DNA from: Candidatus Omnitrophota bacterium
Lineage (GTDB): Bacteria > Omnitrophota > Gorgyraeia > Zapsychrales > Fredricksoniimonadaceae
Length of the DNA: 64,000 nt
Direction: 5' to 3'
Assembly: GCA_903860135.1 (NCBI GenBank)
Contig: CAIOPG010000009.1
Coordinates: forward strand, 175,805-239,804
This document shows, one piece after another, positions 27,081-46,920 of this stretch. Both the position numbers and the translations under genes were made by a program. The notes beneath the pieces were generated by a model. It searched no databases. It worked only from the letters and a program-made list of their open reading frames with translations, and was not told the DNA's origin. Position 1 is the first letter of the stretch; each line of letters opens with the position of its first letter.

Positions 27081-27092
27081 TATAGCGTCACT

Positions 27093-27839: not shown

Positions 27840-27841
27840 GC

Positions 27842-28474: not shown

Positions 28475-28476
28475 AA

Positions 28477-30389: not shown

Positions 30390-30401
30390 ACCATTCCAAA
30401 A

Positions 30402-30818: not shown

Positions 30819-30836
30819 TACTTACCCCATTTCCAA

Positions 30837-31256
30837 TTAATTCTTTAATGTAGAGAAAATACCGCCCTTGGTTTTTGTAACAGTTCCCGCAGGGGCATTC
30901 AGGGTAAGCGTGATCGTATCAGCAACTCCTGCACCACCTTTTAAAGTAGCTGTCGCACCGCAAGCAGATGCATTCGCACATTCAGTAGCGGTAAATGAAT
31001 AGGTAAAATTACTTGATGCCGTTGGAAATGAATAGCCCGATATTGCTGTTACATTATTACATGCCGTATAATCTTCACTGTTCTGAATATAACATTCCTG
31101 GACTTTGCGCATCAAAACACCAAGCTGCATATAAGCCTCTGCCGCTTTGGCAATATTCACCTGAGCGCTAAGACGCGGCAGTGCTACTGCGGCCAAAACA
31201 CCAATGATGATAACAACAATGATGATCTCGATTAGTGTAAAACCCTTTTTTTTCAT
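30837..31256 (-). CDS. type IV major pilin candidate, tandem copy 2 (139 aa)
   Basis: MKKKG|FTLIEIIIVV.... Differs from copy 1 by four residues plus one Lys in the leader. Confidence 0.88.
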   Translation of the reverse strand: MKKKGFTLIEIIIVVIIIGVLAAVALPRLSAQVNIAKAAEAYMQLGVLMRKVQECYIQNSEDYTACNNVTAISGYSFPTASSNFTYSFTATECANASACGATATLKGGAGVADTITLTLNAPAGTVTKTKGGIFSTLKN

Positions 31257-31313
31257 ACATTTCCTTTTTTAGTGTTTTATTAGTATGTTCCTGCATTAAT
31301 AATATTTTTGGAA

Positions 31314-31730
31314 TTAATTCTTCAAAGTTGAAAAAATACCACCCTTTGTTTTTGTAACGGTTCCCGCAGGGGCATTCAGCGTAAGCGTGATAACATCCGC
31401 CGCCGCACCACCTTTTAAAGTAGCTGTCGCACCGCAAGCAGATGCATTCGCACATTCAGTAGCGGTAAATGCATATGTAAAATTACTCGATCCAGTTGGA
31501 AAGGAATAACCAGATATCGCTGTTACATTATTGCATGCCGCATAATCTTCACTATTCTGAACATAACATTCTTGGACTTTGCGCATCAAAACACCAAGCT
31601 GCATATAAGCCTCTGCCGCTTTGGCAATATTCACCTGAGCGCTAAGACGCGGCAACGCTACTGCGGCCAAAACACCGATAATGATAACAACAATGATGAT
31701 CTCGATTAGTGTAAAACCTTTTTTTTTCAT
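31314..31730 (-). CDS. type IV major pilin candidate, tandem copy 3 (138 aa)
   Basis: MKKKG|FTLIEIIIVV.... The N-terminal roughly 55 residues are identical to copies 1 and 2, and the C-terminal half is slightly diverged. Confidence 0.88.
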   Translation of the reverse strand: MKKKGFTLIEIIIVVIIIGVLAAVALPRLSAQVNIAKAAEAYMQLGVLMRKVQECYVQNSEDYAACNNVTAISGYSFPTGSSNFTYAFTATECANASACGATATLKGGAAADVITLTLNAPAGTVTKTKGGIFSTLKN

Positions 31731-31787
31731 ACATTTCCTTTTTTAGTGTTTTATTAATATCTTCCTGAATTAAAAATATTTTTAAAA

Positions 31788-32207
31788 TTAATTCTTCAAA
31801 GTTGAGAAAATACCCCCCTTTGTTTTTGTAATCGAACCAGCTGAAATATCCAGCTTAAGAGTGATAACATCCGCAGCGTTCGCATTGGTTCCACTGAATG
31901 AAGCTTGACCTACACAATTATTAGCATCTGGACACAGAGAAGAATTAAAATTATATGTAAAATTAGGAGTTACTGGAAATGTATAACCTGATAGAGCTGT
32001 CACCTCGTTGCATCCCGCCATGATGTCACCATTTTGAATATAACATTCCTGGACTTTGCGCATCAGAACACCCAGTTGCCTATAGGCCTCAACGGCTTTT
32101 GTAGTATTAACCTGATTCGTAACACGAGGCATAGCTATCGCTGCTAAGACTCCAATAATTATAACAACAATTATTACTTCAATCAATGTAAACCCATTTT
32201 TATACAC
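31788..32207 (-). CDS. type IV major pilin candidate, tandem copy 4 (more diverged, about 139 aa)
   Basis: Shares GFTLIE..IIVVIIIGVLAA, QLGVLMRKVQECYIQN and the terminal TKTKGGIFSTLKN with copies 1-3. I favour GTG 32207 (MYKNG|FTLIEV), which gives the same 5-residue leader as the paralogs. The ORF-track start 32222 is also a GTG. Confidence 0.8.
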   Translation of the reverse strand: MYKNGFTLIEVIIVVIIIGVLAAIAMPRVTNQVNTTKAVEAYRQLGVLMRKVQECYIQNGDIMAGCNEVTALSGYTFPVTPNFTYNFNSSLCPDANNCVGQASFSGTNANAADVITLKLDISAGSITKTKGGIFSTLKN

Positions 32208-32281
32208 GTATATCCTACCCACATGTTATCTGTATACAAATATGACATATTTAAATAAATAAAGCGAATATAAATAATTAA

Positions 32282-33508
32282 TTATCCTCCGGTAGATAAA
32301 GAAAGTATAGGTAGAAACATCGCGATAACAATTAGACCTATTACACCACCCATGATAACAAGCATAACGGGTTCAATAAGAATGCTGAATCGCTTCAAAA
32401 ATTCTTCAACATTAGCTTTATAATATATGGCGACATTATTCAACATCTTGCCAAGCTCACCGGTTTCCTCGCCAACACGGATCATCTGCACCGTCATCGA
32501 AGGGAAAAATCCACTTCTTTCCATTGGATCTGCCAAAAGCTGCCCCTCACGTACGGCTTCACGCACATTTCTTATAACTTCCGCACAAACCACATTATCC
32601 ACCAGTCTCTCCGATATCTCCAAAGAATAAAGAATGGGGACACCGCTTTCCATAAGGGTGGACATTTGAGATGTAAACTTCTCAATTACAATTAATTTTA
32701 TCATACCACCGAAAATAGGAACTTTAAAAAGAAAAGTCTCAAATTGCTTTCTTCCAAGAGGTGTTTTAATGTAATTCATGAAAAGAAAAATGCTTCCGGC
32801 CCCTCCAGCAATAAGTATAAAAAATCTCTCTTTCAATAATTTGAAAATTGACATCATTATGACCGTGATAGTCGGGAGCTTGATATCCATATCAGAAAAA
32901 ATACGTTCAAATGTAGGCCCGACAAAAAGAGCGAAAAACAAAACAGCTCCGATACAAATAAAACAAAGAACCATCGGATAAACAAGGGCTCCTATAATAG
33001 TAGACTTGAACTTGGCTGTATCCTCCATATATTGTGTCAACTTGTTGAGAACTTTCGGTAATGTACCAGATGCTTCACCAACCTCAATAAGACTGACCCA
33101 AAAAGCAGTAAACACCTTGGGATATTTTGAAATAGCGCTACTGAAAGTACGACCCTGTTCAACATCTGTGACTACCGCCTCAATGATGACGGTTAACCCA
33201 CGACTTTCCAGCTGAGAGCTGATGATCTTGAGCGATCGCATTAACAAAACACCTGCTCCCATCATCGCAGAAAGTTGACGCGCAAAAGAAACAACATCAT
33301 TTAATGAAATATTATTGTGCGAAAACACCCGCTTCTTTGCAACTGACGTCACAGGCTGTTGATTCTCAACAAACTGTTTTACAGCGGTTACAAAAAGCCC
33401 TTTTTGCTGTGCAAACTTAACAGCCTGCTGATCATTAATGGACTCTACAACCTCATTAAATACATGCCCTGAATTATCTTTAGCAGTAACAAGAAATTTG
33501 GCCATCAA
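32282..33508 (-). CDS. pilC: type IV pilus/T2SS platform protein (GspF/PilC family)
   Basis: 408 aa. Two T2SSF repeats (FARQLSAMMGAGVLLMRSL; FTSQMSTLMESGVPILYSL), three TM segments, and a C-terminal IEPVMLVIMGGVIGLIVIAMFLPI. Confidence 0.9.
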   Translation of the reverse strand: MMAKFLVTAKDNSGHVFNEVVESINDQQAVKFAQQKGLFVTAVKQFVENQQPVTSVAKKRVFSHNNISLNDVVSFARQLSAMMGAGVLLMRSLKIISSQLESRGLTVIIEAVVTDVEQGRTFSSAISKYPKVFTAFWVSLIEVGEASGTLPKVLNKLTQYMEDTAKFKSTIIGALVYPMVLCFICIGAVLFFALFVGPTFERIFSDMDIKLPTITVIMMSIFKLLKERFFILIAGGAGSIFLFMNYIKTPLGRKQFETFLFKVPIFGGMIKLIVIEKFTSQMSTLMESGVPILYSLEISERLVDNVVCAEVIRNVREAVREGQLLADPMERSGFFPSMTVQMIRVGEETGELGKMLNNVAIYYKANVEEFLKRFSILIEPVMLVIMGGVIGLIVIAMFLPILSLSTGG

Positions 33509-33523
33509 TTTCCCCAGATCAAT

Positions 33524-35233
33524 TTATATAACAATAGATAAAATTTCCTCAAGGCTCGTGACACCTTCTTCAACCTTCTTCATCCCAACTTCAAAAAGTG
33601 TCGCCATTCCAGCTTTAGATGCTGCGTCCTTCAATTCGTCATAGGAAACATTGTTACCGATCATACGCCGTATAACATCATTAATGGCAAGAACCTCTGA
33701 TACGACCATGCGTCCCCTGTATCCGGTGTGCCCGCATTTATCGCACCCTTTAGCGCGATAAATCAAATCGGTAGACAACTTGATAGACCCCAGATCTTCC
33801 GGCCTCGGTTCATAGGGCTCTTTGCAATCGGCGCATAACTTACGCGCTAAGCGCTGGCTCACAATCATCGTTAATGACGGTGTTAATAAATATGAGGGGA
33901 CACCTATATCCATCAAGCGGCTTATCGCTGACGGTGCGTCATTGGTATGCAGTGTTGAAAGGACAAAGTGACCTGTTAATGCCGCACGCACACATATCTC
34001 TGCTGTCTCAAGATCACGTATTTCACCAACCATAATGATATCCGGATCCTGTCGAAGAAACGATCGTAACGCCTGTGCAAATCCAAAGCCAATATCAGGA
34101 CGCACATGAACCTGGTTAATTCCATCAATGCGGAACTCAACAGGATCTTCTGCTGTCATAATATTCTTGGTGCGATCAAAAACTTCAGAAAGAGAAGAAT
34201 AAAGGGTCGTCGACTTACCACTACCCGTAGGTCCTGTTATAAGAAAAAGACCATACGGAACTTTAAGTGCTTTACGGATGAGTTCTAACTGGGACGCATT
34301 AAATCCAAGCGTAGCCAAATCAAGTTTTACTGCATTCTTATCCAGGATACGCATAACCACTTTCTCTCCCCAAACGGTAGGAACGGTGGACACACGCAGA
34401 TCAACAACACGGTTTTGATCAAACTTTACAGAAATACGCCCATCCTGCGGCAATCGCCTCTCGGCAATGTCAAGCCTAGAAATGATCTTAATGCGCGATA
34501 CGATCGAAGCATGAAGATGTTTTGCCGGCGGAGGGATTTGATAAAGATCACCGTCGATACGATAACGAAGTTCGATCTTGTCCTTAAAAGGTTCGATATG
34601 AATATCACTTGCCCGGTCATCAATAGCCTGCCTGATAATAAGATCCACAAGCTTGATGATCGGCGCTTCTTCGGCTGTTGCGATCAACCTGTCAAGACTT
34701 AACTCCGACTCAGATTTATCATCACCGGATGTTGAGAAATTACTCGAGTCATTCTGCGCTCTTTCAACCGCCTTTCCCCAAGCACCACCCTCATCGGCCA
34801 GATAAAACCGCTCCAATGATTTTAGAATATCGGTACGTGTCGCAATGACAAAGTTTATTTCACAACCAGTCATCTTTTTCAAATTATCGATCATAATAAG
34901 ATCAAATGGATTAAAGATCGCGCATGTCAGTGAATTACCATTCCGATTAAGTAACAATACAAGATTATCTACAGCATACTGATACGAAATAAGCTTTTCA
35001 AGGCCCTGCCCTTTTTGAGGATTCAATAGGCCTGAAGCTTCGGAGGCATATGGAATAAGAAGCTGTGTCCCAAGAGCCACAGCCAAGTCGCTTTCATTAA
35101 TAAATCCCATTTTGACCAAAATTTCTCCGACATGACTCTTGTCGGTCTTTTGGGCATCTATAGCAGACTGGAACTGGGCTTCGGTAATTAAGCCCTTTTT
35201 AATAAGTATTTCACCAAGCTTTAACCGTGCCAT
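33524..35233 (-). CDS. pilB: type IV pilus assembly ATPase (GspE/PilB family) with N-terminal MshEN-type domain
   Basis: 569 aa. Walker A GPTGSGKST, Walker B DPDIIMVGEIRD, His box GHFVLSTLHTNDA, and a tetracysteine CADC...CDKC. The N-terminus holds two 24-residue MshEN-like motifs. Confidence 0.92.
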   Translation of the reverse strand: MARLKLGEILIKKGLITEAQFQSAIDAQKTDKSHVGEILVKMGFINESDLAVALGTQLLIPYASEASGLLNPQKGQGLEKLISYQYAVDNLVLLLNRNGNSLTCAIFNPFDLIMIDNLKKMTGCEINFVIATRTDILKSLERFYLADEGGAWGKAVERAQNDSSNFSTSGDDKSESELSLDRLIATAEEAPIIKLVDLIIRQAIDDRASDIHIEPFKDKIELRYRIDGDLYQIPPPAKHLHASIVSRIKIISRLDIAERRLPQDGRISVKFDQNRVVDLRVSTVPTVWGEKVVMRILDKNAVKLDLATLGFNASQLELIRKALKVPYGLFLITGPTGSGKSTTLYSSLSEVFDRTKNIMTAEDPVEFRIDGINQVHVRPDIGFGFAQALRSFLRQDPDIIMVGEIRDLETAEICVRAALTGHFVLSTLHTNDAPSAISRLMDIGVPSYLLTPSLTMIVSQRLARKLCADCKEPYEPRPEDLGSIKLSTDLIYRAKGCDKCGHTGYRGRMVVSEVLAINDVIRRMIGNNVSYDELKDAASKAGMATLFEVGMKKVEEGVTSLEEILSIVI

Positions 35234-35242
35234 AATTTAATC

Positions 35243-36745
35243 CTATTTCTTTTGTACACTCATAGAGTCCATGGCAGAACGAATAATGCTCTGTCTTATC
35301 ACACCGCTACTTTCGCGAATTCCAAGATCAGCAGGAACAGTGTCAACAACGAAATCACTGCCAGGATCCATGACACGGGGGGTAATAAAAATAAGGAGCT
35401 CCCTGTCTTTGGTAGTCGTAGTATCGTGACGGAACACACGCCCGAGAAAAGGAATGTCTCCTAAGACCGGAAGTTTTGTCTGAACTTTTTGTTTCTCAGA
35501 ACGTAACAATCCTCCGAGAACAACAGTTTCACCCGAATGTATCCTCATTTTAACCTTAGCACTACGGATCTCTGTGTCCTTAAAAGTCACCCCGCTATAA
35601 GTTCCACCCAAACGCGCAACAACCACGCGTGGTGAAACAGCCAGTAAAATATCACCTGTCATCAAATTTAACTGAGGCGTGACCGTCAACGTAATCCCCG
35701 TCTCAACTCGTTCAGGTTCAACAGTGGATCCTTGCGTTATTGTCGCCGCTGCCGTCACTTTAACACCAATAGCTTCCGACGCAGTAATCTTAATCTGTGC
35801 CGTTTCATTATTCATGGTCCAAATTCTTGGGCGCGCTAAATTCCTAGCATCTGTTGACGTCTTTAAAAACTGTAACATAGCCGAAAAAGCATTTCCGCCC
35901 ATCGCGCCCTGTGAATACGTAACCTCTGTGCCCCCCTTACTAAGTGCATTCTTTTGGTCAAGAGGGAAATAAAAACTCCTCCCTCCCAGTCCTTTGAAAT
36001 CATATAAGGTGTTGCCAAACTTAACACCTATCTCATCAGCTACTTCCTTAGAAACATCTATCATCTGGACTTCAATCAATATCTGGGCAACCGGCACATC
36101 CAGTTTAGCCAATGTTCGTTCGATCAAAGGAAAATTTGTATCTTCATCAGAAATGATCAGGCTGTTGGTCCGTGAATCTTCAGCGATCTTGGCCGAAGCT
36201 GTTAATACTGTTTTCAAAATATCCACGAGAGCAACGCTCGTCGTTACTGTATTGCTCCCAGCACTCGACGATCCATTACCCCCCCCTTCTTCTGCGGTAA
36301 TTCCGAATGTTGATTGCAACTTTGAAGATGCAACAGTAGCATATTTTAAAGGATAAACACGCGTTATGATATTCTTTTCAGCCTTGATATTATCGATCAT
36401 CAAAATATTGTCATTATTATCATATGAATAAGAAAGTCCATTTGCCGTCAAAATTTTTTTCAAAGCATCCTCAACAGGAACAGCATCAAGAAAAAGTGTT
36501 ATAGGGTCGGTTTTAACAGCGTCTGAAACAATAAAATTGGCACCTATCTGACGAGAGAAGGCCTTCAAAACATCCCTGATATCTGCATTCTTGAAATCAA
36601 GGGAAACAAGTTGAGAATATTGTGGAAGTATAAAACTGTTCTGACTACCAGCTGAAGTAGTGGCAGAAAAAACTTGAGTAAATAAAGAAATTTGAATAAT
36701 ATTGGTAAGTAAAAATATAAATAAATATTTATTTTTTAAACCCAT
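35243..36745 (-). CDS. pilQ: outer-membrane secretin (PilQ/GspD family), short form
   Basis: 500 aa. Signal peptide, N0-like domain (VSLDFKNADIRDVLKAFSRQIGANFIV), and a C-terminal secretin core (LPVLGDIPFLGRVFRHDTTTTKDRELLIFITPRV). Confidence 0.9.
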   Translation of the reverse strand: MGLKNKYLFIFLLTNIIQISLFTQVFSATTSAGSQNSFILPQYSQLVSLDFKNADIRDVLKAFSRQIGANFIVSDAVKTDPITLFLDAVPVEDALKKILTANGLSYSYDNNDNILMIDNIKAEKNIITRVYPLKYATVASSKLQSTFGITAEEGGGNGSSSAGSNTVTTSVALVDILKTVLTASAKIAEDSRTNSLIISDEDTNFPLIERTLAKLDVPVAQILIEVQMIDVSKEVADEIGVKFGNTLYDFKGLGGRSFYFPLDQKNALSKGGTEVTYSQGAMGGNAFSAMLQFLKTSTDARNLARPRIWTMNNETAQIKITASEAIGVKVTAAATITQGSTVEPERVETGITLTVTPQLNLMTGDILLAVSPRVVVARLGGTYSGVTFKDTEIRSAKVKMRIHSGETVVLGGLLRSEKQKVQTKLPVLGDIPFLGRVFRHDTTTTKDRELLIFITPRVMDPGSDFVVDTVPADLGIRESSGVIRQSIIRSAMDSMSVQKK

Positions 36746-36749
36746 ACTA

Positions 36750-37265
36750 TCAATCTTTCAATAATAACTTGTAAAGAAATTCGTTGTAATCTATTTCCAC
36801 ACGGCCTTTGCGGATAGCCAAAATCCTTACCCCCTCTGATCTATCCCCCAAACCCAATATATTTCCATTTAAAATAACCATTGGATTCCTTGTTTTATAA
36901 AATATTCCTGTCACTTTCAGCACAGGCAACGAGGCTATTGATAATTTCCTTACAGGTTGCGCTGAGGGTATCGCAACAAAGTGCTTTATTTCAGGAATAA
37001 CAGCAACTATCGGTCTATCTACTACTGGCTTAACTAAATTATCAGCTTCCTTGCGAAAATCTTTACTAACAAGATCTGGTCTGGCTTTAAACGGATGGAA
37101 AGGCTCCCCAAGAGACTCTATCATCATTTCAAACGGAAGCTTATTAGTCTCATTGGCGTAAGAAAGAGTTGAATTAAAATGAAATAATTGAAAACTATAG
37201 ATAAAAAGAATATTATACATTAAAAAAAGATGATGCCTACTTCTTTTTAAAATTTTTATGTTCAT
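36750..37265 (-). CDS. PilP/GspC-like periplasmic protein (hypothetical)
   Basis: Start at ATG 37265 (MNIKILKRSRHHLFLMYNILFIYSFQLF...SYA|NE), a plausible signal peptide. The C-terminus LKVTGIFYKTRNPMVILNGNILGLGDRSEGVRILAIRKGRVEIDY resembles the PilP/GspC HR beta-domain. Lies just upstream of the secretin gene. The start is uncertain (alternatives 37301 and 37220). Confidence 0.5.
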   Translation of the reverse strand: MNIKILKRSRHHLFLMYNILFIYSFQLFHFNSTLSYANETNKLPFEMMIESLGEPFHPFKARPDLVSKDFRKEADNLVKPVVDRPIVAVIPEIKHFVAIPSAQPVRKLSIASLPVLKVTGIFYKTRNPMVILNGNILGLGDRSEGVRILAIRKGRVEIDYNEFLYKLLLKD

Positions 37266-37854
37266 TATCTTCCACCAGTTGAAGCAACGAAATGGTAACA
37301 TCCAGCGTCATCGCATCCGTCTGGACTCCTGAATTAACCGGATTGTACTTAATCAACAGGCTATCCAATTTGATCATGTACCCGGAAGATTCCATATCAT
37401 GAACAAATAATAGCATATCCTTGACATTAAGGGAAGAAGCACTAAAACTCATACAAATAGAACGAAAAAAACCATCATTGCTAGTCTGCAATGGATTAAA
37501 AGCATCAATTGTAATTCGTCGCCGCGTGGCACGCCCTGTAACATAAGATATAAAATCAGCCTTGACCAATCCCAAAGGCATCTTGCACATATAATCAGTC
37601 AGATATTTGTTGCTTTGCTCAAGATCCTGGATAGGCTGTCTTTTTGATTGCAAAATCTTTTTTCTCGACGCAAGAGACTGATATTGATTAAAATTTTTAG
37701 TTGTAAGAAAAACTATTACACAAAATCCCAATAAAACAATCAAAGAATTAGTCGCTAAAACTAAATTCTGATTTACATAATGGTTACAATCCTTAATAAA
37801 TTTTGAAGGATTATTTAGATATATTTCGAAATTCTTTAAATCATCAAGATTCAT
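37237..37854 (-). CDS. PilO-like bitopic membrane protein (hypothetical)
   Basis: ATG 37854 forms an ATGA overlap with the upstream stop. One TM helix (LVLATNSLIVLLGFCVIVFL), then a coiled-coil-like segment and a C-terminal alpha/beta region. Position between PilM-N and the PilP-like gene matches pilO. Assigned by architecture and position only. Confidence 0.5.
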   Translation of the reverse strand: MNLDDLKNFEIYLNNPSKFIKDCNHYVNQNLVLATNSLIVLLGFCVIVFLTTKNFNQYQSLASRKKILQSKRQPIQDLEQSNKYLTDYMCKMPLGLVKADFISYVTGRATRRRITIDAFNPLQTSNDGFFRSICMSFSASSLNVKDMLLFVHDMESSGYMIKLDSLLIKYNPVNSGVQTDAMTLDVTISLLQLVEDNEHKNFKKK

Positions 37855-39455
37855 TTCGCCTCGCACGTAATCGAAAACGCTGTGACTTTTCTATTATCAT
37901 ATTCTCGAACCTGTAAAGAAACAATCTTAATTTGTGTGAAATTAGTGGCGAACAAATTATCGCTATTTAAAGCATTAAAGAAATGATTAACCCTTTCAAA
38001 TTCTATATTGTTGTCCTTCAAAGACACATACCCCGAAAAGGTCATTGCCGTCTTGGTCTGAAGTGAATAATAATCAACCTCTTTGTTCCCGGGCTCAGGG
38101 ACCTTGCGCGCCGAAACAGGCTCATCTTTAAAAGACAAACTAACAGACTCAAGCCAAAATCCGGATGGCAGTCGTTTGACCAGCCGCACCAACATCTTTG
38201 TCGCCCGTGCATCGAAAGGCAATGATTTCAATGAAAATAACTTCTTGACATTCTTCATTTTCTTCTGAACGGCGTCTGACTCATCTATATCAACGTATTC
38301 CCCGATCTCCTGCTCAAGATTAACAACTTCCTGTCTAAACTTAGACAGAAGCTGATCAGCAAAGAATGCAACAGAAAAGATCAGTGTAAAAACACCGGCC
38401 CCCACCGCCAAGGGCAAAACCAATGCTTGCCTCCTCTGGTCAATTTCAACTTGCTTGAGAGAAACCTGCTGTTTGGAACCTTCAAACAAATTAAAGTCAA
38501 TAACAGTAACCACTTTACTCATCATGGCCACGCCGTAGGCATACACAGCCGCCATTGTATTGCAATCATTGTGATCTACAAGTCTAAAAATATCAACAAT
38601 CTCAACATTGACCCCGAGTTCCTCTCCCATCTTGTCCCACAAAGCATTATTTCCGCCAATGGATATGGCCACCATTCTCTGGACTTCCTCCCCGCCATAC
38701 TGACGCAAGAAGAATTCGGAAGAAATACGGATCTCATTGAAAACTTTGGAACGTAGCTCATCATCGATCTGAAGAGTGCCAACACCCTGATGCACACCTC
38801 CCTGAAGATTAAACTCACGGATAAACTTGACATACCCTTTTTCACAAATAAGGAGTTCTCCGATATAACCATCGACATAAACAATCGCCGTTAATTCATC
38901 GGGATCAACGATCTTTCTAAAAACCAATGCACGGTAAAGACTAGCCGACGCCGGTTCACTGTAAACAACATTTATACCTGCTTGCATTAAAGCATCCGCA
39001 TGTTTTTCAAAAACATCTTTACGGATAGCAACAAATATAATGCCAATCTGCCGCGGATTACTTCCTAGAATATTCGAAGGAAAATATGTGTACGACAACT
39101 CATCAATTGGGAAAGGAATATACTTCTTGGCTTCGAAGATAACAACATCCTGTATCTCGCTTGACTTCATCCACGGAATACTGAACCAGCGAATAATAAT
39201 ATCTTTTGAAGGGATAGAAAGAAATGTTTCCTGCGTTGAAAAACCTTTATTTCGAACAGATTTTTGCAGTGCATCTAGAATCTGCATATCATGCGGTAAA
39301 GACTTCTTGTCAGCAGTGGAAGCCACGTCTTCCGGCGATACAAAAGGAACAAATGTCCCTATGGCGGGTGCGTTGCTCTCCAGTTGAACCAGCGTGAATC
39401 CGCTTGATCCCGAGTAAACCCCTAATCGCTTCTCACTGGCCATACCCAACCTCAT
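37851..39455 (-). CDS. pilM: PilM-PilN fusion (actin-like ATPase-fold pilus assembly protein joined to a TM helix and periplasmic PilN-like domain)
   Basis: N-terminal LGVYSGSSGFTLVQLE and FEAKKYIPFPIDEL resemble PilM motifs. A TM helix near residue 345 (ALVLPLAVGAGVFTLIFSVAFFA) is followed by about 170 aa. The likely true start is ATG 39443 (GAGG 6 nt upstream); the ORF-track start is 39455. Confidence 0.7.
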   Translation of the reverse strand: MRLGMASEKRLGVYSGSSGFTLVQLESNAPAIGTFVPFVSPEDVASTADKKSLPHDMQILDALQKSVRNKGFSTQETFLSIPSKDIIIRWFSIPWMKSSEIQDVVIFEAKKYIPFPIDELSYTYFPSNILGSNPRQIGIIFVAIRKDVFEKHADALMQAGINVVYSEPASASLYRALVFRKIVDPDELTAIVYVDGYIGELLICEKGYVKFIREFNLQGGVHQGVGTLQIDDELRSKVFNEIRISSEFFLRQYGGEEVQRMVAISIGGNNALWDKMGEELGVNVEIVDIFRLVDHNDCNTMAAVYAYGVAMMSKVVTVIDFNLFEGSKQQVSLKQVEIDQRRQALVLPLAVGAGVFTLIFSVAFFADQLLSKFRQEVVNLEQEIGEYVDIDESDAVQKKMKNVKKLFSLKSLPFDARATKMLVRLVKRLPSGFWLESVSLSFKDEPVSARKVPEPGNKEVDYYSLQTKTAMTFSGYVSLKDNNIEFERVNHFFNALNSDNLFATNFTQIKIVSLQVREYDNRKVTAFSITCEAK

Positions 39456-39511
39456 TGCTTTTATAAAAATGAATACTTTTAGCTAATAATCAATCGCAAG
39501 AAACGTATGCA

Positions 39512-39841
39512 TCAGTAACTAACATCCATCGTGAATGCCCTTGTTGCCCCTGGTCCTCCGCCGGCTACTTGGGTATAATGAACCGAATATGTTGTTCCGT
39601 CAACATATTCAGAGAAATCCGTAAGTGTTGTCGAACCACCGGCGTAAATCTCGCGTGCCCACCATAAAGCTTTTTTGGCAATAAGTTCCGCCTGAAGATG
39701 CTTTCTTTCACGTTCGGAAATAAGTGCCTGTGAATAATTTCGCGATAACACACCTAAAACCAAGATTGACATAAGCATAACAGCCGCAATAACTGTCAGT
39801 AAAATTACCCCCCGCTCACTACCGTATTCTCTTCTAATCAT
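39512..39841 (-). CDS. PilX_N/GspK-like pseudopilin-like protein (about 109 aa, no Glu5)
   Basis: Internal ATG 39841 gives MIRREYGSERGVILLTVIAAVMLMSILVLGVLS, resembling the ERGxALxxVL N-terminus of PilX/GspK-type proteins. The ORF-track extension to 39952 overlaps the upstream gene. Confidence 0.5.
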   Translation of the reverse strand: MIRREYGSERGVILLTVIAAVMLMSILVLGVLSRNYSQALISERERKHLQAELIAKKALWWAREIYAGGSTTLTDFSEYVDGTTYSVHYTQVAGGGPGATRAFTMDVSY

Positions 39842-40073
39842 GAATTCCCTCCTCAAGATAACTCTGACAAAGTGGACAACGCACAACCTCAGTCTTTCCG
39901 TTACTGATAATGATATGGCTGCAATAGGGGCATTGCCTAACAATACCCGCACTTGATGCCTCCCTGTTTACGCCATCATCCACAACGGCATATTTAAACC
40001 ACATAAACCCAAAAAAAATAATCATGACAGAAAGACAAAGACTTACGCCCAAGGCAATATCTATCGTGATCAT
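39834..40073 (-). CDS. small membrane-anchored zinc-ribbon protein (79 aa)
   Basis: N-terminal TM helix (IALGVSLCLSVMIIFFGFMWF), then CPYC-x14-CPLC. 4-nt overlap with the upstream TonB-like gene and 8-nt overlap with the downstream gene. Confidence 0.55.
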   Translation of the reverse strand: MITIDIALGVSLCLSVMIIFFGFMWFKYAVVDDGVNREASSAGIVRQCPYCSHIIISNGKTEVVRCPLCQSYLEEGIHD

Positions 40074-40498
40074 GGCAACCTCAAACGAAGATCTAATGGT
40101 GCTACAGGAACATCCTCAACAACTGCCACAGAAGGTTCATCGCGATCCTCAGGAACAACCCTTACACCGGAAAAATGAAATATATCCTTATCCTCCGGTG
40201 GCATACTTCTATAAAAAGATTCAGGTTTCTCTGCCTGCAAGGAGCGCAACCACCCTCCTGATAAGTATAATGGTACGGTACTATCATTAATCTTTTCTTC
40301 AACTTGCAGGACTGAAACTTCATGACGCGAAGGAATAACTTCCTGCGGGCTTAAAATATTGCCCAAGAAGACAACATCGAGTTTGTACGTGTTGTTAACA
40401 GCTCCTTTAAATGAAAAGATCACAAAAGTTAAAGCGATGGCGTGCATGATGCCCGCCGTTAATACCCCTATCATCGGAGAATGCCACTTCACTAGCAT
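40070..40498 (-). CDS. TonB/TolA-like N-terminal anchor protein lacking a recognisable C-terminal TonB domain (142 aa)
   Basis: Single TM helix containing His (GVLTAGIMHAIALTFVIFSF), followed by an acidic/Pro-containing tail. Sits where tonB/tolA follows exbD/tolR. 1-nt overlap with the exbD stop. Confidence 0.5.
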   Translation of the reverse strand: MLVKWHSPMIGVLTAGIMHAIALTFVIFSFKGAVNNTYKLDVVFLGNILSPQEVIPSRHEVSVLQVEEKINDSTVPLYLSGGWLRSLQAEKPESFYRSMPPEDKDIFHFSGVRVVPEDRDEPSVAVVEDVPVAPLDLRLRLP

Positions 40499-40896
40499 TA
40501 CTTCTCACGATCCGTAGCAATATTAATATGCTCGATCCCCATGCTGCGGGCAAGATTCAGGATGTCCACAACACGACCAACCGATGCCCGGTGATCCGCC
40601 TTGATCAAGATGGCTCTGGCATTGCCGCCAGGAAATGCTAAAAACTCTTTAAGTTCACCCAGCGTGATCAAATGATTATTCACATACACAACATTCTCGC
40701 CCGTCACAATGATCGTCAAACTTGACGGAGAGGCTATGTCGCTTGTCACTCCTTTGGGCAAGGCGATCTTTAAGAACGATGATTTTGAAATAAATAAAAT
40801 AAACGCTATAAAACCCAATAGAATAAATAATACATTCAAAAAAGGAAAGAAATTAAATTTTGGCACACATAATTTCAAATGCCTACGGAAATCCAT
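40498..40896 (-). CDS. ExbD/TolR family biopolymer transport protein, with Asn at the canonical TM Asp position
   Basis: 132 aa. FNFFPFLNVLFILLGFI aligns to E. coli ExbD INVTPFIDVMLVLLIIF and TolR INIVPLLDVLLVLLLIF. The periplasmic domain ends ILIKADHRASVGRVVDILNLARSMGIEHINIAT. Confidence 0.85.
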   Translation of the reverse strand: MDFRRHLKLCVPKFNFFPFLNVLFILLGFIAFILFISKSSFLKIALPKGVTSDIASPSSLTIIVTGENVVYVNNHLITLGELKEFLAFPGGNARAILIKADHRASVGRVVDILNLARSMGIEHINIATDREK

Positions 40897-40899
40897 GCC

Positions 40900-41568
40900 C
40901 TAAGCCCCTCCGGCTAAAGGAACATTAATAATCTGCGTCATTTCACGCACAAGCGTCGAAGCAACCTGCTCCATCTGCAGAACAGTACCCTCGATCACCT
41001 TAAGAAAATACCGGTGCGCGATCATGGCAAAGATCCCGACAAGGGAAGCCGCCGCTGTTGTAATAAGCGCTTGCCCAAGACCAGCCGTAACATCCATCAA
41101 ACTGGCAGGATTTACAGCTACCGCACGAAGCTGTATTGTATGCAATAACCCACACAAACCAACCACCGTCCCCAGAAGGCCGATCAAAGGCACTAATTGA
41201 GCCATAAATACTAAAAGATCCAACCCTTTTTCCATCGCGCGTACCTCATACCTGGCCGCATCTTCCATCGCCACTTGTATCTCTGGTGCCGATTGACCAA
41301 AACTCAACAATCCTGCTTTTAAAATTCGTGCCATCGAAGAATCTGCGGCATCACACGCTGAAAGGGCACCCATGGTATTATTGTTTTGAATAAAACCGAT
41401 CACTTGAATAGAAAGGACAGCAATACCTTCGCGCACTTCTCCTAGAAACAAGAATCTTTCAATGACCAAAGCCGTAACACTGACGGAACATATCAAAACA
41501 GGAACCATGACAGGACCACCTGTCAATAATAATCGCCATGCGCCAATCCCGGTTACAGCATCGATCAT
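40900..41568 (-). CDS. MotA/TolQ/ExbB family proton-channel-like protein, with Gln at the canonical TM3 Glu position
   Basis: 222 aa with three TM helices. LIGLLGTVVGL (TM2) and AGLGQALITTAAASLVGIFAMIAHRYF align to E. coli ExbB PGIAEALLATAIGLVAAIPAVVIYNVF. Confidence 0.85.
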   Translation of the reverse strand: MIDAVTGIGAWRLLLTGGPVMVPVLICSVSVTALVIERFLFLGEVREGIAVLSIQVIGFIQNNNTMGALSACDAADSSMARILKAGLLSFGQSAPEIQVAMEDAARYEVRAMEKGLDLLVFMAQLVPLIGLLGTVVGLCGLLHTIQLRAVAVNPASLMDVTAGLGQALITTAAASLVGIFAMIAHRYFLKVIEGTVLQMEQVASTLVREMTQIINVPLAGGA

Positions 41569-41586
41569 TTAGGCATCCTTCGGCTA

Positions 41587-44070
41587 TTATTTCTTCCCGC
41601 TGCGTTCTTGGATCAACTCAATCCGTTCATTGGCAAACTTACTCTCGTCAACCTTCAAGTCAACAACCTTCCTGTACGCAGTAATCGCCTTTTCTAATTC
41701 ATTATTGTTTTCAAAAATTCTAGCGATACGCAAATATGCTTTTATAACCCATGGGATTTCTTTCGAATAAATATACGGTATCTTGAAATAAGCCTCTAGT
41801 GCCTTGTCAGATTCATTCAACACCTCGTAAACATCTCCCACAGAAAATTGAATCCCGGCACTGGTTACCTGGCTTTCACCTTTATCCGCTTCGATAGCCT
41901 CCGCGTATACAAACAACTCTTCGTTAAATTTCTTCTCCCGACGGTATATCTGCGCTATCTTCATTAAAGCATCACGTTTATACTGCGGACTTGTCGCTAT
42001 AATACCATGGTATGTTTCAACCGCCTTGTCAGTATCCAGTTCCTTAACAAATATACCAGCAATAGCAATCTTTGCCTTGGGGTAAAGTAATGGATCAATT
42101 TGGGGATCAACCTGCCTAAAATACGCGAGAGCTTTTTCAAAGTTCTCCAAAGACAAATACGCACGACCCAATTCAAAACAAAGAAGACCTTGCTTGACCG
42201 TCTCGGGCAAATCAAACAAGCCCTTCGTATAGAGTTCTACGGCCACCTGATAGAGACCTTCTGTCATATTGTACTGCCCCAGCCACAGAACACACTCGAT
42301 CTCCGCTTCGGTGTGAGGGTAACGATGCACGATATCTTTAAAACGTGCAAGTGCTTCCTTCGTGTCACCCATAGCATCATATGTCTTGGCAAGCCCTACA
42401 TACGCATTCTGGAGTATCTGCTGTTCATCAGGATAAAGCCTAAGCACATCATTAAAGATAACTATCGCCCTGTCAAACTGCTTCAAATTAAAATGCGTCA
42501 TCGCCAACACATAACGGGCTTCCGCCACAAACTGAACCGGAACAACAGGGTCAGAAATAAAAGAGGTCAGTATTTCAACAGCCGTCGCCCATTCCTTTCT
42601 ACGGAAATACGCCAAACCAAGATAATAACGGGATTCAGAAATATACTTACTGCCGGGATAATTAGCTTTTAATGCCTGAAGTGCCAAAACAGCAGCATCA
42701 ATCTTGCCGGATTTAAGAAGCGCAATCCCTAAATAATATTGGACATGATCTTCATAAGGCGTGTCCGGCATTTCATGAAGGATCTTGTCATAGACATCGA
42801 TCGCCTTGTCCATAACGCCAGCCTCCTGATAGGCATCCGCAATCTGGCTATACGCACTCACTTTTATTATCTTGTTATCCGACTTGTCAGCTACCAGCTG
42901 AAACATAGCGACAGCCTTGTCAATATCACCGCTCTTGGAATAAGTCCAAGCTAAACCGAACCTAGCTTTCTCGATCATTTTATCCCGTCCTGCCGCACCG
43001 CTAGAAATAGCAATGATCATCTCATAATCTTTGATAGCGGCCACATAATCATTAACAAGATACCAGGCATTGGCACGCCCCAAATAAGTATCGGCTATTT
43101 TAAGACTCGCCGGAAACCGCGCGATAACTTCCGAATAAATTGAGGCCGCTTCAACATATTTCTCCTGGGCTATAAAAAGACTCGCCTTGGCCAAAAGAAC
43201 ATCTTCTTCGGATACCTTTGCCGCTTTAACCGCAAATTGCGCTTCATCGAACGTCTTTAACGCCTCCACATATTTCTTAAGTTTGATCTGACACCAGCCC
43301 GTCCCGATCAGCGATGCGGCCATCGAAGATGGCGCCGTTGTCAATGATCTGGCTTTCTGATAAGCATCCGAGGCCTTGTCATATTGTTCCAGATTATACA
43401 AAGCCTCGGCCACATTGAATTGGGCTTCATAAAGACGGGTCGAACCGGGATGCCCTGAGATATAATTATTGAAAGCCACAATAGCCGCTTCATACTGAAC
43501 AGCATTGTAGTCACACTCTCCCAGCTTGAACGCGGCATCATCGGACAAGTTGTTAGCAGGAAACTTATCGATCAAGGCCTGGAATATCTTTTTGGCCGAC
43601 ACATAATCTTCCTTCTGAAAATAAGACCAGGCGAGCGAATAATATGCCTGGGGCGCATACAGGGATGCCGGAAAAGCATCAATAACTTGACGGTATTTCT
43701 CTTGGGCTTTGGGAATATCGCCACCCTTGAAATATGTTTCTCCCAACCAGAAAAGAGAGGCATCCTTGTATTCAGGCAACGCTACCAGATCCTTAAAAAC
43801 ATTAAAGGCCTGCACATACTGTTGCTTAAAGAAATAACTTTGCCCTTCGAGCAATCTCGCTTCAACAACTTTTGTGGTTTGCGGGAATTCAGTTAGAAGT
43901 TGATTGACGTAACGCAGAGAAACATCATAAAAACCATCTTCAAATGCGCGCTGGGCTACAATGAAAAGATCTTTCTCATTAGAATCAACAGCAAAAGATG
44001 GTGTCGCAACGATGAGCAACGAAATGCCCATGATGTACAGGATACATTGTAGATTTTTTCTTATTTTCAT
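41587..44070 (-). CDS. large secreted tetratricopeptide-repeat protein (827 aa)
   Basis: Signal peptide MKIRKNLQCILYIMGISLLIVATPSFA|VD. The remainder is almost entirely TPR-like A/Y/L-patterned 34-mers (for example AQFNVAEALYNLEQYDKASDAYQKA). First gene of the locus, 18 nt upstream of exbB. Confidence 0.8.
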   Translation of the reverse strand: MKIRKNLQCILYIMGISLLIVATPSFAVDSNEKDLFIVAQRAFEDGFYDVSLRYVNQLLTEFPQTTKVVEARLLEGQSYFFKQQYVQAFNVFKDLVALPEYKDASLFWLGETYFKGGDIPKAQEKYRQVIDAFPASLYAPQAYYSLAWSYFQKEDYVSAKKIFQALIDKFPANNLSDDAAFKLGECDYNAVQYEAAIVAFNNYISGHPGSTRLYEAQFNVAEALYNLEQYDKASDAYQKARSLTTAPSSMAASLIGTGWCQIKLKKYVEALKTFDEAQFAVKAAKVSEEDVLLAKASLFIAQEKYVEAASIYSEVIARFPASLKIADTYLGRANAWYLVNDYVAAIKDYEMIIAISSGAAGRDKMIEKARFGLAWTYSKSGDIDKAVAMFQLVADKSDNKIIKVSAYSQIADAYQEAGVMDKAIDVYDKILHEMPDTPYEDHVQYYLGIALLKSGKIDAAVLALQALKANYPGSKYISESRYYLGLAYFRRKEWATAVEILTSFISDPVVPVQFVAEARYVLAMTHFNLKQFDRAIVIFNDVLRLYPDEQQILQNAYVGLAKTYDAMGDTKEALARFKDIVHRYPHTEAEIECVLWLGQYNMTEGLYQVAVELYTKGLFDLPETVKQGLLCFELGRAYLSLENFEKALAYFRQVDPQIDPLLYPKAKIAIAGIFVKELDTDKAVETYHGIIATSPQYKRDALMKIAQIYRREKKFNEELFVYAEAIEADKGESQVTSAGIQFSVGDVYEVLNESDKALEAYFKIPYIYSKEIPWVIKAYLRIARIFENNNELEKAITAYRKVVDLKVDESKFANERIELIQERSGKK

Positions 44071-44127: not shown

Positions 44128-46920
44128 TTAAAGCTGGCGTTGCAGGAATGGACGCAAATACTGACCGGTGTATGATTCCGGGTGTGCCATCAGCCCTTCG
44201 GGAGTACCCGAGAATACCACACGGCCGCCGCGATCCCCACCATCTGGTCCAAGGTCTATGACATGGTCCGCTGATTTGATCACCTCGAGGTTATGCTCAA
44301 TGACAAGGACCGTGTTCCCCTTATCTACCAGCTGCTGAAGGACGCCGAGCAGTTTCTCGACATCAGCAAAATGCAGGCCTGTTGTTGGTTCATCCAGGAT
44401 ATACAGCGTCCTTCCTGTTGAAGGTTTGCAAAGCTCTGCCGCAAGTTTCACGCGCTGAGCTTCCCCGCCCGACAGCGTCGTGGCCGCCTGGCCGATCTTC
44501 ACATAACCAAGGCCAACCTCATTGATCACGCGCAATACCCGGGCAATACGGGGAATGTTGCCGAAGACCTCCAGTGCTTCGCTGATCGACATATCGAGCG
44601 TCTGACTGATATTCCTGCCTTTATATTCAACCTGCAAGGTCTGCTCGTTGAATCGCTGCCCATGACAAACAGCGCATTCCACATGAACATCCGGCAAGAA
44701 ATGCATTTCAATTTCTTTAACCCCGTCCCCCTGGCACGCTTCACAACGTCCGCCTTTAACATTAAAACTGAAACGCCCTGGACCATATCCCCTCAACCTG
44801 GATTCAGGAAGTCCGGAAAAAATAGAACGGATATCCGTAAAGACACCTGTATATGTTGCCGGATTTGACCGGGGTGTACGTCCTATCGGCGACTGATCAA
44901 CGACGATGACCTTGTCAATGGCGTCAAGTCCCTCAAGTTTCCTGTAAGCACCGGATTTCTCGCGGGATCCATAAAGATGACGCGCAAGCGCTTTATAAAG
45001 AACATCATAAACAAGCGTTGATTTCCCTGAACCGGAAACACCCGTTACGCATACAAAAACCCCCAGCGGGATATCAACATCAATATTCTTTAGATTATGT
45101 TCACTGACACCCTTTAAACGGATACAAGCTCCGCGCACAGCGGGCCGCCGTTGTGCCGGGATAGGAATACGGATAGATCCCTTAAGGTATTGCCCCGTCA
45201 ACGAATCTGAAATGGAAAGAATACCGTCAACAGGCCCCGCGTACATGATCTCCCCGCCGAACCGCCCCGCGCCCGGACCGAGATCCACCAGCCAGTCCGC
45301 ACTGCGGATCGTATCCTCATCATGTTCCACGACCACAAGGGTATTCCCCAGATCTCTGAGATCCCGTAAACTTGACAACAACCTTTCATTATCTTTTTGA
45401 TGGAGCCCGATAGACGGCTCATCCATCACATACACCACGCCGACGAGTCCGGAACCCACCTGCGTTGCCAGGCGGATGCGTTCAGCTTCCCCGCCGGATA
45501 GCGTTGAACTTTTACGGTCAAGCGTCAAATAATCCAGCCCCACATTGATACAAAAATCAAGCCGGCGAATGATCTCTTTAAGAACAGGTGCCGCAATGGT
45601 GCGTTCACCCCCCTCCAGTTGAAGCCCCAGAAAAAACTCCCGCGACTCCTGAATGGACATGCGCACGATCTCGGCAATGTTCTTGCCCTCAACAAGCACC
45701 ATCAGGGCTTCTTTCCTCAAACGCCGCCCTTCACACGCAGGGCATGGCGCTTCGGACATGAATTTTGAGATCTCCTCCTTGAGCCAGTCGCTCGGCGTCT
45801 CCCTGAACAAACGCTGGAGATAACCCGCGACCCCTTCAAACTTCTTGCCCCAGATAATGTCTTCGCCGCCAAAAAGAACCCTTTGTTTAAAATCCCGGGG
45901 AAGTTTATTGAACGGCATGGCCGGATCCATATCATAAAGCTTGGCTATTTCACGCAACACCGCCCGATAATACATCATGTATCCCCGCTGGCCCTTGCGC
46001 CAGGGAACAATGGCCGATACCCATGCTTTCTCCGGTGACGTGACCAATGTTTCAACATCGATCTCCATCCTTGTCCCGATACCATTGCAATCAGGGCATG
46101 CCCCATACGGAGAGTTGAAAGAAAATGTCCGCGGCTCAAGCTCCGGAAGATCGATCCCCTCATCGGGAACAGCAAAACTCTCGCTCATGACAAGATCTTC
46201 TGTCCCGTCTGTAAAACCGACAACAATAAAACCCTTGCCGACCCTGAGTGCCGTCTCGACCGAATCTGTCAAACGGGTTTTCACGTCTGGTCTGACTGAT
46301 AGGCGATCTACCACTATTTCGACAGAATGGATCTTATAACGATCAAATTTGATCTTGTCTTGAACATCATAAATATGCCCATCGACCCGTAGCCGCGCAA
46401 AACCCGCCTTGGCCACATCCCTACCGATGTGTGGATAGGTGCCCTTCTTCCCGCGGATATACGGCGCAAGGATATTGATCTTACTGCCCGCAGACAGTCG
46501 TAATATCCGTTCGACCATTTCCTGGGCAGACTGCTTCTCGAGCTTTTGCCCCATATAATAAGGAACACCGATCCTCGCGAACAACAGCCTCAAATAATCA
46601 TAAATTTCCGTCTGCGTGGCCACCGTTGACCTGGGATTACGGCTGATCGTTTTCTGTTCAATGGAGATCGTCGGGCTCAAGCCTTCGATCGACTCGACAT
46701 CCGGTTTCTGCACCTGATCGAGAAATTGGCGGGCATACGCTGAAAGGCTTTCCACATAACGCCGCTGCCCTTCAGCATAGATCGTATCAAAAGCCAGCGA
46801 AGACTTCCCAGAACCACTCAACCCCGTCACAACAATCAACTTGTTGCGGGGAAGCTCAAGGGAAATGTTCTTGAGATTATGTTCCCTGGCATTCTTGATA
46901 ACGATATTATTAAGTTGCAT
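44128..46920 (-). CDS. uvrA: excinuclease ABC subunit A
   Basis: 930 aa. Two ABC modules ([14 protein letters not shown]; [11 protein letters not shown]), zinc fingers CPDCNG and CEACQGDG, and LSGGEAQR signatures. Confidence 0.97.

Follow-up and report, generated by a model that had tools for sequence, protein, structure and literature searches.

An ExbB-ExbD cassette with Asn at the position of the proton-binding aspartate, located beside a type IVa pilus operon in Omnitrophota, and the recurrent loss of this aspartate among related loci

The transmembrane (TM) Asp of ExbD, TolR and MotB (D25, D23 and D32, respectively) is regarded as an indispensable site of proton binding in all 5:2 motors. 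Described here is a cassette of the ExbB/ExbD type in which this residue is Asn and the Glu of the third TM segment (TM3) of ExbB is Gln. The cassette lies beside a type IVa pilus operon in a stretch of 64,000 nucleotides from a Candidatus Omnitrophota bacterium (assembly GCA_903860135.1, contig CAIOPG010000009.1, positions 175,805 to 239,804), hereafter referred to as the window. In Escherichia coli, the proton-motive force (PMF) is engaged solely through Asp25 of ExbD (PMC11658791). The D25N mutant of this protein is inactive, unresponsive to the PMF and dominant negative, and mimics PMF collapse; it is stable, dimerises and still cross-links to ExbB (10.1101/2022.09.26.509584). The substitution in the window is identical to that of the laboratory mutant and occurs at the identical position. 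The difference is that in Omnitrophota the change is natural and recurrent, with approximately 10 origins, and has been long maintained with intact partner genes.

With the TonB-ExbB-ExbD system of E. coli and Serratia (6TYI, 7AJQ), the cassette shares a three-TM ExbB with pore Thr, a one-TM ExbD with a periplasmic domain, a third bitopic protein with a TM His, the order exbB-exbD-tonB and, in basal orthologues, a C-terminal domain of the TonB type. The window differs from this system in the replacement of the ExbD Asp by Asn, of the ExbB Glu by Gln and of the Ser in the SxxxH motif by Ala, in the presence of an extra zinc-ribbon membrane protein and a PilX-like pseudopilin, and in having no TonB-dependent transporter nearby. 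Likeness to Tol-Pal can also be seen, as TolQ is the NCBIfam model that the ExbB-like protein matches best, a tetratricopeptide repeat (TPR) protein of the YbgF/CpoB type is encoded upstream, and the anchor has a TolA/TonB-type TM segment with His. However, no TolB or Pal gene was found in the window or within 10 kb on either side of the related loci, the TPR protein has 827 residues and is encoded upstream rather than downstream, and the proton-binding Asp is absent. The NCBIfam equivalog cutoffs of TolQ and TolR were far from reached (62.3 against 221 and 33.7 against 127), and those of exbB (24.6 against 206) and ExbD_2 (39.6 against 123) were missed as well.

Two further systems resemble the arrangement of the locus. 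The AglRQS-Glt gliding machinery of Myxococcus xanthus shows that a Tol/Exb-type motor can be attached, both genetically and functionally, to a trans-envelope machine that is neither Ton nor Tol, and the Agl motor retains the TM Asp and is driven by the PMF. One report (PMC3169522) presents it as a TolQR-like motor recruited to a different envelope machine. By comparison, the coupling between motor and pilus in Omnitrophota is indicated by gene neighbourhood only. The GspA/GspB (ExeA/ExeB) pair includes a bitopic TonB-like inner-membrane protein whose gene accompanies those of a type IV filament system with a secretin, and ExeAB is not known to have ExbB/ExbD partners. The likeness to this accessory of type II secretion is conceptual only; the PilP-like open reading frame (ORF) of the window has a weak T2SSB match.

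The codon at 40834-40836 of ExbD is AAT (Asn21), one base from GAT, and the codon at 41071-41073 of ExbB is CAA (Gln166), one base from GAA. A profile of five ExbD sequences of the window's clade ('iPfvnvlf') pairs without gaps with 'TPFIDVML' of E. coli ExbD (6tyi_Y) and with 'VPLLDVLL' of TolR (9ddm_Y), so that Asn21 corresponds to Asp25/Asp23. When the single ExbD of the window was used in a phmmer search of the PDB, no ExbD or TolR was found, the sequence being too divergent. For ExbB, phmmer against solved structures pairs 'AGLGQALITTAAA' with 'PGIAEALIATA' of TolQ and ExbB, and Gln166 thereby corresponds to the TM3 Glu, which is Glu176 in E. coli ExbB and Glu173 in TolQ. ExbB retains its pore-lining Thr residues, T134 in TM2 and T171 in TM3 (E. 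coli T148 and T181), which are invariant in 79/79 orthologues; the 'PLLGLLGTV' motif likewise survives in Asp-less lineages. MotA_ExbB (PF01618) scores 79 bits on the ExbB-like protein against a gathering score of 22.9, and ExbD (PF02472) scores 57.6 bits on the ExbD-like protein against 25.4. Three hydrophobic segments (residues 13-43, 114-147 and 164-185) are present in the former protein. The latter has a single TM helix at approximately residues 12-38, followed by a periplasmic domain with conserved motifs, of which VTSD and LIKADxRASVG are unchanged throughout the window's clade. An earlier note on this DNA had placed Asn21 and Gln166 at the two canonical positions with the Thr181 equivalent kept, and both placements are confirmed by these alignments. 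Its reading frames and their gap and overlaps were also found exactly as claimed, with the agreement of an independent gene caller, and both Pfam families are matched above gathering score (Table 1).

No Asp or Glu was found in the TM cores of ExbD, of ExbB TM1-3 or of the 142-aa anchor, as the earlier note had stated. Nearby acids occur only at TM boundaries and are kept family-wide (E37 of ExbB, in the 'IERF' motif, and D5 of the zinc-ribbon protein). A compensating carboxylate was sought in 23 Asp-less species, the search covering the ExbD TM, ExbB TM1-3, the TM of the TonB-like protein and the zinc-ribbon protein, and with the exception of one Glu in the ExbB of a single locus (L013) none was found in these TM segments. 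The N-terminal Asp/Glu of the zinc-ribbon protein is conserved in Asp-bearing and Asp-less classes alike.

The distribution of these residues was obtained by scanning one genome per GTDB species with the ExbD clade profile, which gave 80 loci, nearly all labelled Candidatus Omnitrophota (individual loci are cited by L numbers). Gene order is near-invariant among these approximately 80 loci: uvrA, TPR, exbB, exbD, tonB-like, zinc-ribbon, pilX-like, pilMN, pilO, pilP, pilQ, pilB, pilC. In the alignment of 86 ExbD orthologues, the Asp25 column is occupied by Asp (59), Asn (22), Ala (2), Ser (1) and Gly (1). The Glu176 column of ExbB orthologues holds Glu (61), Gln (15), Ser (5), His (1) and Val (1). 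As ExbD/ExbB pairs, D/E is found 52 times, N/Q 10, N/E 6, N/S 4 and D/Q 4, in addition to singletons; N/H and A/E are also seen. The canonical Asp/Glu pair is the ancestral and majority state, with approximately 65% of the sampled species, and the window belongs to a minority of approximately 30%. On a rough single-gene neighbour-joining tree of uvrA, the root is D/E, and parsimony gives at least 10 changes between D and non-D in ExbD and at least 6 between E and non-E in ExbB.

Within the window's clade, ExbB has Q, S or H almost throughout, and ExbD has mostly Asn, yet Asp occurs in L004 and L034. Loss of the Asp with retention of the Glu is seen in L038, L075 and L065. Strict coupling of D to N with E to Q is ruled out, as both orders of loss and all mixed states were found. 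Since mixed states and either loss alone occur, the two losses are associated, not obligatorily paired. The 'paired' change put forward in the earlier note therefore survives as a tendency, visible in the N/Q pairs, and is overstated as a rule: D/Q, N/E, N/S, N/H and A/E all exist, and Gln is the commonest residue at the TM3 Glu position among the nearest ExbB homologues (87 of 121).

Beyond these loci, an exhaustive search of 1.84 billion cluster representatives with ExbD matched 7,201 proteins. The best 150 of the 7,201, representing clusters at 50% identity, include Asp 65, Asn 57, Ser 9, Gly 5, His 2, Thr 1 and Ala 1 in this column, which was read by means of the E. coli ExbD and TolR sequences, the register being confirmed against PDB chains. 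It can be seen that Asp-less forms of ExbD are numerous and diverse. A word-index search with ExbD gave 5 relatives only, and the breadth comes from the representative search and the genome scan. For ExbB, a cultured Simiduia genome encodes ExbB with Gln followed by ExbD with canonical 'TPLIDV', in the neighbourhood comEC-exbB-exbD-lpxK-kdsB. Gln in ExbB is therefore ordinary, and the informative change is the Asn of ExbD. The Asp-less state is a common lineage variant and not a unique design. The ExbB of Wenzhouxiangella, presumed to be another Gln-type example, was found to have Glu. In the gammaproteobacteria Wenzhouxiangella (L090:3601-8830) and Simiduia (L093:3377-8098), exbB-exbD are located between the competence channel gene comEC and (msbA)-lpxK-kdsB with no tonB adjacent, a further conserved setting for such a pair.

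Selection on the cassette was compared between the two classes by the ratio dN/dS (omega). In Asp-bearing D/E pairs (L021/L036, L062/L072, L080/L082 and L014/L017), omega of ExbB and ExbD is 0.00-0.07, a constraint equal to or tighter than that on uvrA. The Asp-less pair L060/L065 has omega values of 0.26 for ExbB and 0.18 for ExbD, compared with 0.05 for uvrA. Comparison of the window with L086 (Asp-less; ExbB 94% identical) gave 0.29, for ExbB only, and its comparison with L001 or L006 (Asp-less, dS saturated) gave 0.14-0.26. Selection in Asp-less lineages is thus relaxed yet still purifying, and the ORFs are intact, with no frameshifts or stops, in all of the approximately 23 Asp-less species.

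Identity was additionally compared for pairs binned at equal uvrA identity. The ExbD TM helix is 70-88% identical in Asp pairs versus 33-35% in Asp-less pairs, and ExbB TM2-3 is 69-90% versus 50-54%. For the ExbD periplasmic domain the values are 54-80% versus 45-60%, and for the zinc-ribbon protein, which evolves faster in Asp-less lineages alongside ExbB and ExbD, 31-61% versus 26-34%. An example of this fast divergence is the 52% identity of ExbB and 58% of ExbD where uvrA is 88% identical. PilMN, GspE, the PilX-like protein and the TPR protein have equal rates in both classes. This pattern fits the loss of a sequence-specific helix-in-pore proton mechanism, with the proteins retained under moderate purifying selection. 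The contrast in rates also separates the constraint imposed by the motor only (the ExbD TM helix and most of ExbB) from other constraint (the ExbD periplasmic domain).

Because the Asp was lost recurrently, the ExbD TM helix drifted, dN/dS rose and stayed below 1, and no replacement carboxylate appeared, the module in the window is probably a version of the Omnitrophota Ton/Tol-type motor that has been de-energised and is maintained by selection. On this reading, the locus encodes the Omnitrophota form of a Ton/Tol-type inner-membrane energiser: a TPR protein resembling CpoB, a pentamer subunit of the ExbB/TolQ type, an ExbD/TolR-like protein, a TonB/TolA-type anchor and the zinc-ribbon protein. 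The cassette ends in a PilX-like pseudopilin and is located directly upstream of the type IVa pilus operon. Lineages with Asp and Glu presumably have a working proton-driven 5:2 motor, since purifying selection on the canonical form is very strong. The window's lineage has lost the TonB C-terminal domain as well as the Glu of ExbB and the Asp of ExbD, and proton coupling, by analogy with E. coli D25N, would have been lost with them. The complex most likely still assembles, as that mutant does, with no binding or release of protons expected. Instead of acting as a motor, it may persist as a static membrane scaffold that holds the TonB-like stub and the TPR protein together with the conserved periplasmic domain of ExbD, and perhaps also the pseudopilin or pilus machine. 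Of the three options in the earlier note, a non-protonmotive scaffold is thus the one favoured by the lost constraint, the intact ORFs and the assembly of D25N; the loss of proton coupling, the continued assembly and the scaffold role are inferred.

Several points weigh against a de-energised module. The retained ORFs, at omega 0.14-0.29 over deep divergence, show that some function is retained. The pore Thr residues of ExbB in TM2 and TM3 are near-invariant even in Asp-less lineages, and channel geometry could therefore still matter. A second canonical ExbD/TolR elsewhere in the genome might act in trans. Moreover, dS is saturated in most Asp-less pairs, and the count of approximately 10 independent losses of the Asp is itself only approximate, as the uvrA tree is rough. 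All functional statements rest on the E. coli analogy.

Other explanations of the Asp-less state were weighed against the same observations. The Asn/Gln complex is very unlikely to have remained an ion-driven motor with another coupling chemistry, whether based on a polar Asn/Gln/Thr relay, on a water wire or on a different ion. Purifying selection on the ORFs agrees with such a motor, as do the TM2/TM3 Thr and 'PLLGLLGTV' retained in ExbB and the preference for Asn, found in 22/26 non-Asp orthologues and in 57 of the best 150 of 7,201 representatives. However, the replacement is not fixed (Asn, Ser, Ala, Gly, His and Thr all occur), Ala and Gly are incapable of a relay, and the partner residue of ExbB is just as variable (Q/S/H/V/E). 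The drift of the ExbD TM to approximately 33% identity runs contrary to the prediction for a newly optimised path of conduction, no relocated carboxylate was found when the TM segments of 23 species without the Asp were searched, apart from the Glu in L013, and E. coli D25N is dead. The different coupling chemistry proposed in the earlier note is accordingly not upheld. Redundancy of the module, in which another canonical ExbBD/TolQR set of the genome would supply the energised function, possibly in mixed complexes, and the local copy would drift, is rather improbable. Relaxation confined to ExbB, ExbD and the zinc-ribbon protein would agree with it, and multiple Ton/Tol paralogues are common in bacteria according to two reports (PMC13367063; PMC8599685). 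Redundancy would predict pseudogenisation, yet the Asp-less ORFs are intact with omega well below 1, and no second MotA_ExbB or ExbD gene was found in the 64-kb window or in any locus with 10 kb on either side; within the window there is also no second exbBD, tolQR or motAB set and no TonB-dependent transporter, Pal/TolB or PilT gene. Least probable is that the genes are functionless relics heading to pseudogenes. Relics would show what is seen here, in that the essential Asp is gone along with the Glu of ExbB and the C-terminal domain of TonB, and ExbB and ExbD diverge fast relative to uvrA, but the Asp-less species without frameshifts or stops are separated by saturated dS, omega is 0.14-0.29 and not approximately 1, the ExbD motifs VTSD and LIKADxRASVG are invariant in the window's clade, and the coupled overlaps are preserved.

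The partner proteins bear on the origin of the module. The TM His of the 142-aa anchor (H19) is conserved in 74/76 orthologues. The SxxxH spacing is present in 42/53 Asp-bearing lineages, and the anchor of the window has AxxxH, with Ser changed to Ala. The positional orthologue of this protein in basal Omnitrophota has 210-270 aa. Four long orthologues are just below the cutoff of Pfam TonB_C (PF03544), the best scoring 24.2 against 24.6 bits (4.7e-5), and the only near-significant PDB matches to the C-terminal profile of the long orthologues are the TonB chains 9ddz_A and 9dc4_T (E = 0.0055 and 0.0092). For a C-terminal TonB domain in the 142-aa protein of the window, there was no Pfam match and no match to the C-terminal profile, and a homologue search with this protein returned only itself. 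Judged by these sequence features, the 142-aa protein is a predicted TonB orthologue. The earlier note had described it as lacking the C-terminal domain, which is borne out, and the absence is a secondary loss, because the basal positional orthologues carry such a domain. TonB-box binding is impossible for the anchor of the window, since there is no C-terminal domain.

The zinc-ribbon protein is a universal fifth member of the cassette, as it is conserved in 82 loci, some of them basal ones that lack pilus genes. For the PilX-like protein, 6/16 orthologues match PF14341 (PilX_N; best 2.2e-6), the copy in the window matches the N-terminus of NCBIfam T2SS_GspK (3.6e-7), and the family profile is in register with the window's own pilins at Gly-1. 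On these matches, this 109-aa protein is a predicted pseudopilin. The TPR protein matches NCBIfam tol_pal_ybgF (TIGR02795) with 216 bits against a cutoff of 90.1, in six stretches, and its gene is upstream of exbB in 74 loci across the phylum.

Of 64 judgeable loci, 57 have pilus genes after the cassette. Among judgeable loci, 48/50 with TonB forms lacking the C-terminal domain are pilus-adjacent, versus 9/14 with forms bearing it. Lineages lacking the domain (L021/L036, L062/L072 and L014/L017) keep ExbB and ExbD at omega 0.00-0.03, the tightest constraint in the locus, which indicates that the motor drives something without need of the TonB C-terminal domain. uvrA is as syntenic with the cassette as the pilus genes are. 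In the basal loci L070, L054, L080, L082 and L047, the order uvrA-TPR-exbB-exbD-tonB (with C-terminal domain)-zinc-ribbon is followed by CutA, Memo/AMMECR1, RsmE and MiaB-like genes. RsmE is present in the window at 27093-27839, just past the pilin array. The pilus block therefore has the appearance of either an insertion between the cassette and housekeeping genes or a basal deletion. L044 and L076 retain the PilX-like gene, followed by TilS, FtsH and FolP instead of pilus genes.

In 96% of loci, 40 nt or more separate the cassette from pilMN, and the median spacing is 316 nt. In 35 Omnitrophota loci (for example L021:11588-11755, L014:7639-7824 and L039:12175-12372), the PilX-like gene and pilMN are separated by a gene of 55-70 aa with an HTH_17 (excisionase/MerR-like) domain, which is a candidate regulator of the pilus block. 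No copy of it exists anywhere in the 64-kb window, and it was lost in the window's clade, where the spacer is 56-86 nt. Co-transcription of cassette and pilus genes is therefore likelier in this clade than elsewhere. A promoter and terminator scan found nothing in the AT-rich 56-nt spacer of the window (39455-39512), but the scan is uninformative because terminator-like sites overall do not exceed shuffled controls (17 versus 13.7 expected).

Functional coupling of the cassette to the pilus machine is a plausible hypothesis. It is possible, and can be proposed tentatively, that the type IV pilus machine has the cassette as its dedicated accessory, a repurposed stator-like module for, as examples, secretin gating, platform rotation or PilT-independent retraction. 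This proposal concerns what the module attaches to and is compatible with a de-energised module, which in the window's lineage would be a structural part. The frequency of pilus adjacency, its higher value in forms lacking the TonB C-terminal domain and the tight constraint on ExbBD in those forms argue for it. The same is true of the last cassette gene, which is PilX_N/GspK-like, overlapping and translationally coupled, of the short spacer without an intervening gene in the window's clade, and of the absence of a PilT-type ATPase from the window and from the related loci with 10 kb on either side. The equal synteny of uvrA argues against it, however, and almost the whole 64-kb window is co-directional; in addition, basal cassettes and L044 and L076 are followed by other genes, HTH_17 and long gaps separate the two blocks in many loci, and the rates of the pilus genes and the PilX-like gene are steady when the motor decays. 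A stator repurposed for the filament machine, as suggested in the earlier note, is thus in line with the phylum-wide adjacency and the PilX_N/GspK-like gene, and is countered by the uvrA synteny, the basal loci, HTH_17 and the pilus rates. The literature search gave no report linking ExbBD to a pilus operon, placing ExbBD in Omnitrophota or describing a natural Asp-less ExbD. The genomic papers on Omnitrophota that were consulted describe type IVa pili and not ExbB/ExbD or the placement of the cassette (PMC10066038; 10.64898/2026.06.07.730766). A fuller scheme is unlikely. In it, a Ton/Tol-type 5:2 rotary motor, with a TonB lacking its C-terminal domain, the zinc-ribbon protein and the PilX-like pseudopilin, would serve the type IVa pilus machine as a proton-driven accessory, perhaps for retraction without PilT or for secretin gating, and approximately 10 lineages, the window's among them, would independently have turned it into a proton-blind structural 'pseudo-stator'. 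If it were true, this would be the first natural family of selected Asp-less proteins of the ExbD/TolR/MotB type.

The Asp is treated as indispensable, yet it has been lost many times in a large natural group while the genes persist. These natural counterparts of D25N allow the question of what ExbB-ExbD does besides PMF conversion, such as scaffolding, stabilisation of partners or signalling. Additionally, the phylum-wide position of the cassette beside the type IVa pilus operon offers a concrete and testable candidate route by which the PMF might act on a type IV filament machine. Omnitrophota are thought to live attached to hosts.

The layout of the locus is given in Table 1. The junctions are a 3-nt gap between exbB and exbD and overlaps of 1 nt between exbD and the 142-aa gene, 4 nt between the latter and the zinc-ribbon gene and 8 nt between the zinc-ribbon and PilX-like genes. 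The gap between the TPR gene and exbB is 18 nt. Identical products of 222, 132, 142, 79 and 109 aa were given by the independent gene caller. PilM(-N), Secretin/STN, PilB/GspE, T2SSF and G|FTLIE prepilins of a type IVa pilus or type II secretion-like machine were all identified in the window.

Table 1. Genes of the cassette, its upstream neighbour and the adjoining pilus operon, with coordinates in the window
Feature	Coordinates	Strand	Remarks
uvrA	44128-46920	-	Upstream neighbour of the cassette
Secreted TPR protein, 827 aa, repeated YbgF/CpoB-type modules	41587-44070	-	Pfam TPR_6/TPR_16/YfiO; first cassette gene
ExbB/TolQ-like subunit, 222 aa, Gln166 for TM3 Glu	40900-41568	-	PF01618, 3.4e-22
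ExbD/TolR-like subunit, 132 aa, Asn21 for proton-binding TM Asp	40498-40896	-	PF02472, 1.8e-15
TonB/TolA-type anchor, 142 aa, N-terminal TM, no C-terminal TonB domain	40070-40498	-	
Zinc-ribbon membrane protein, 79 aa, cytoplasmic CPxC...CPxC	39834-40073	-	Weak Pfam zinc-ribbon matches
PilX_N/GspK-like predicted minor pseudopilin, 109 aa	39512-39841	-	Last cassette gene
PilM-PilN fusion	37851-39455	-	Pfam and NCBIfam
PilO-like	37237-37866	-	Position and weak matches only
PilP/GspB-like	36750-37301	-	Position and weak matches (weak T2SSB match)
Secretin	35243-36745	-	Pfam/NCBIfam Secretin/STN
PilB/GspE ATPase with MshEN domain	33524-35233	-	Pfam/NCBIfam
PilC/GspF	32282-33508	-	Pfam/NCBIfam T2SSF
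Type IV pilin/pseudopilin array, approximately 9 genes	28477-32222	-	G|FTLIE prepilin motif; N_methyl matches in syntenic loci

Inside the array of approximately 9 ORFs, three nearly identical tandem pilin genes (138-139 aa) are located at 30402-31730, which suggests recent duplication or gene conversion. Only one ATPase of the PilB/GspE type is present, and it has an N-terminal MshEN-type motif for binding of cyclic di-GMP (NCBIfam NF053729, 1.3e-15). The TPR-exbBD-pilus-pilin block (26000-44000) has a G+C content of 34-47%, compared with 51% for uvrA and 52-55% for the flanks. The low G+C content of the block is also seen in the close relative L006, with little contrast in other relatives, and could be due either to transfer of the entire block among lineages or to a local drift towards AT. 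Throughout the window (1-64000), nearly all genes are on the minus strand and the GC skew is negative. The flanks are of housekeeping character, with genes for His, Arg and Lys biosynthesis, SecDF, a SurA-like protein, Mfd, AlaS and RecA/RecX.

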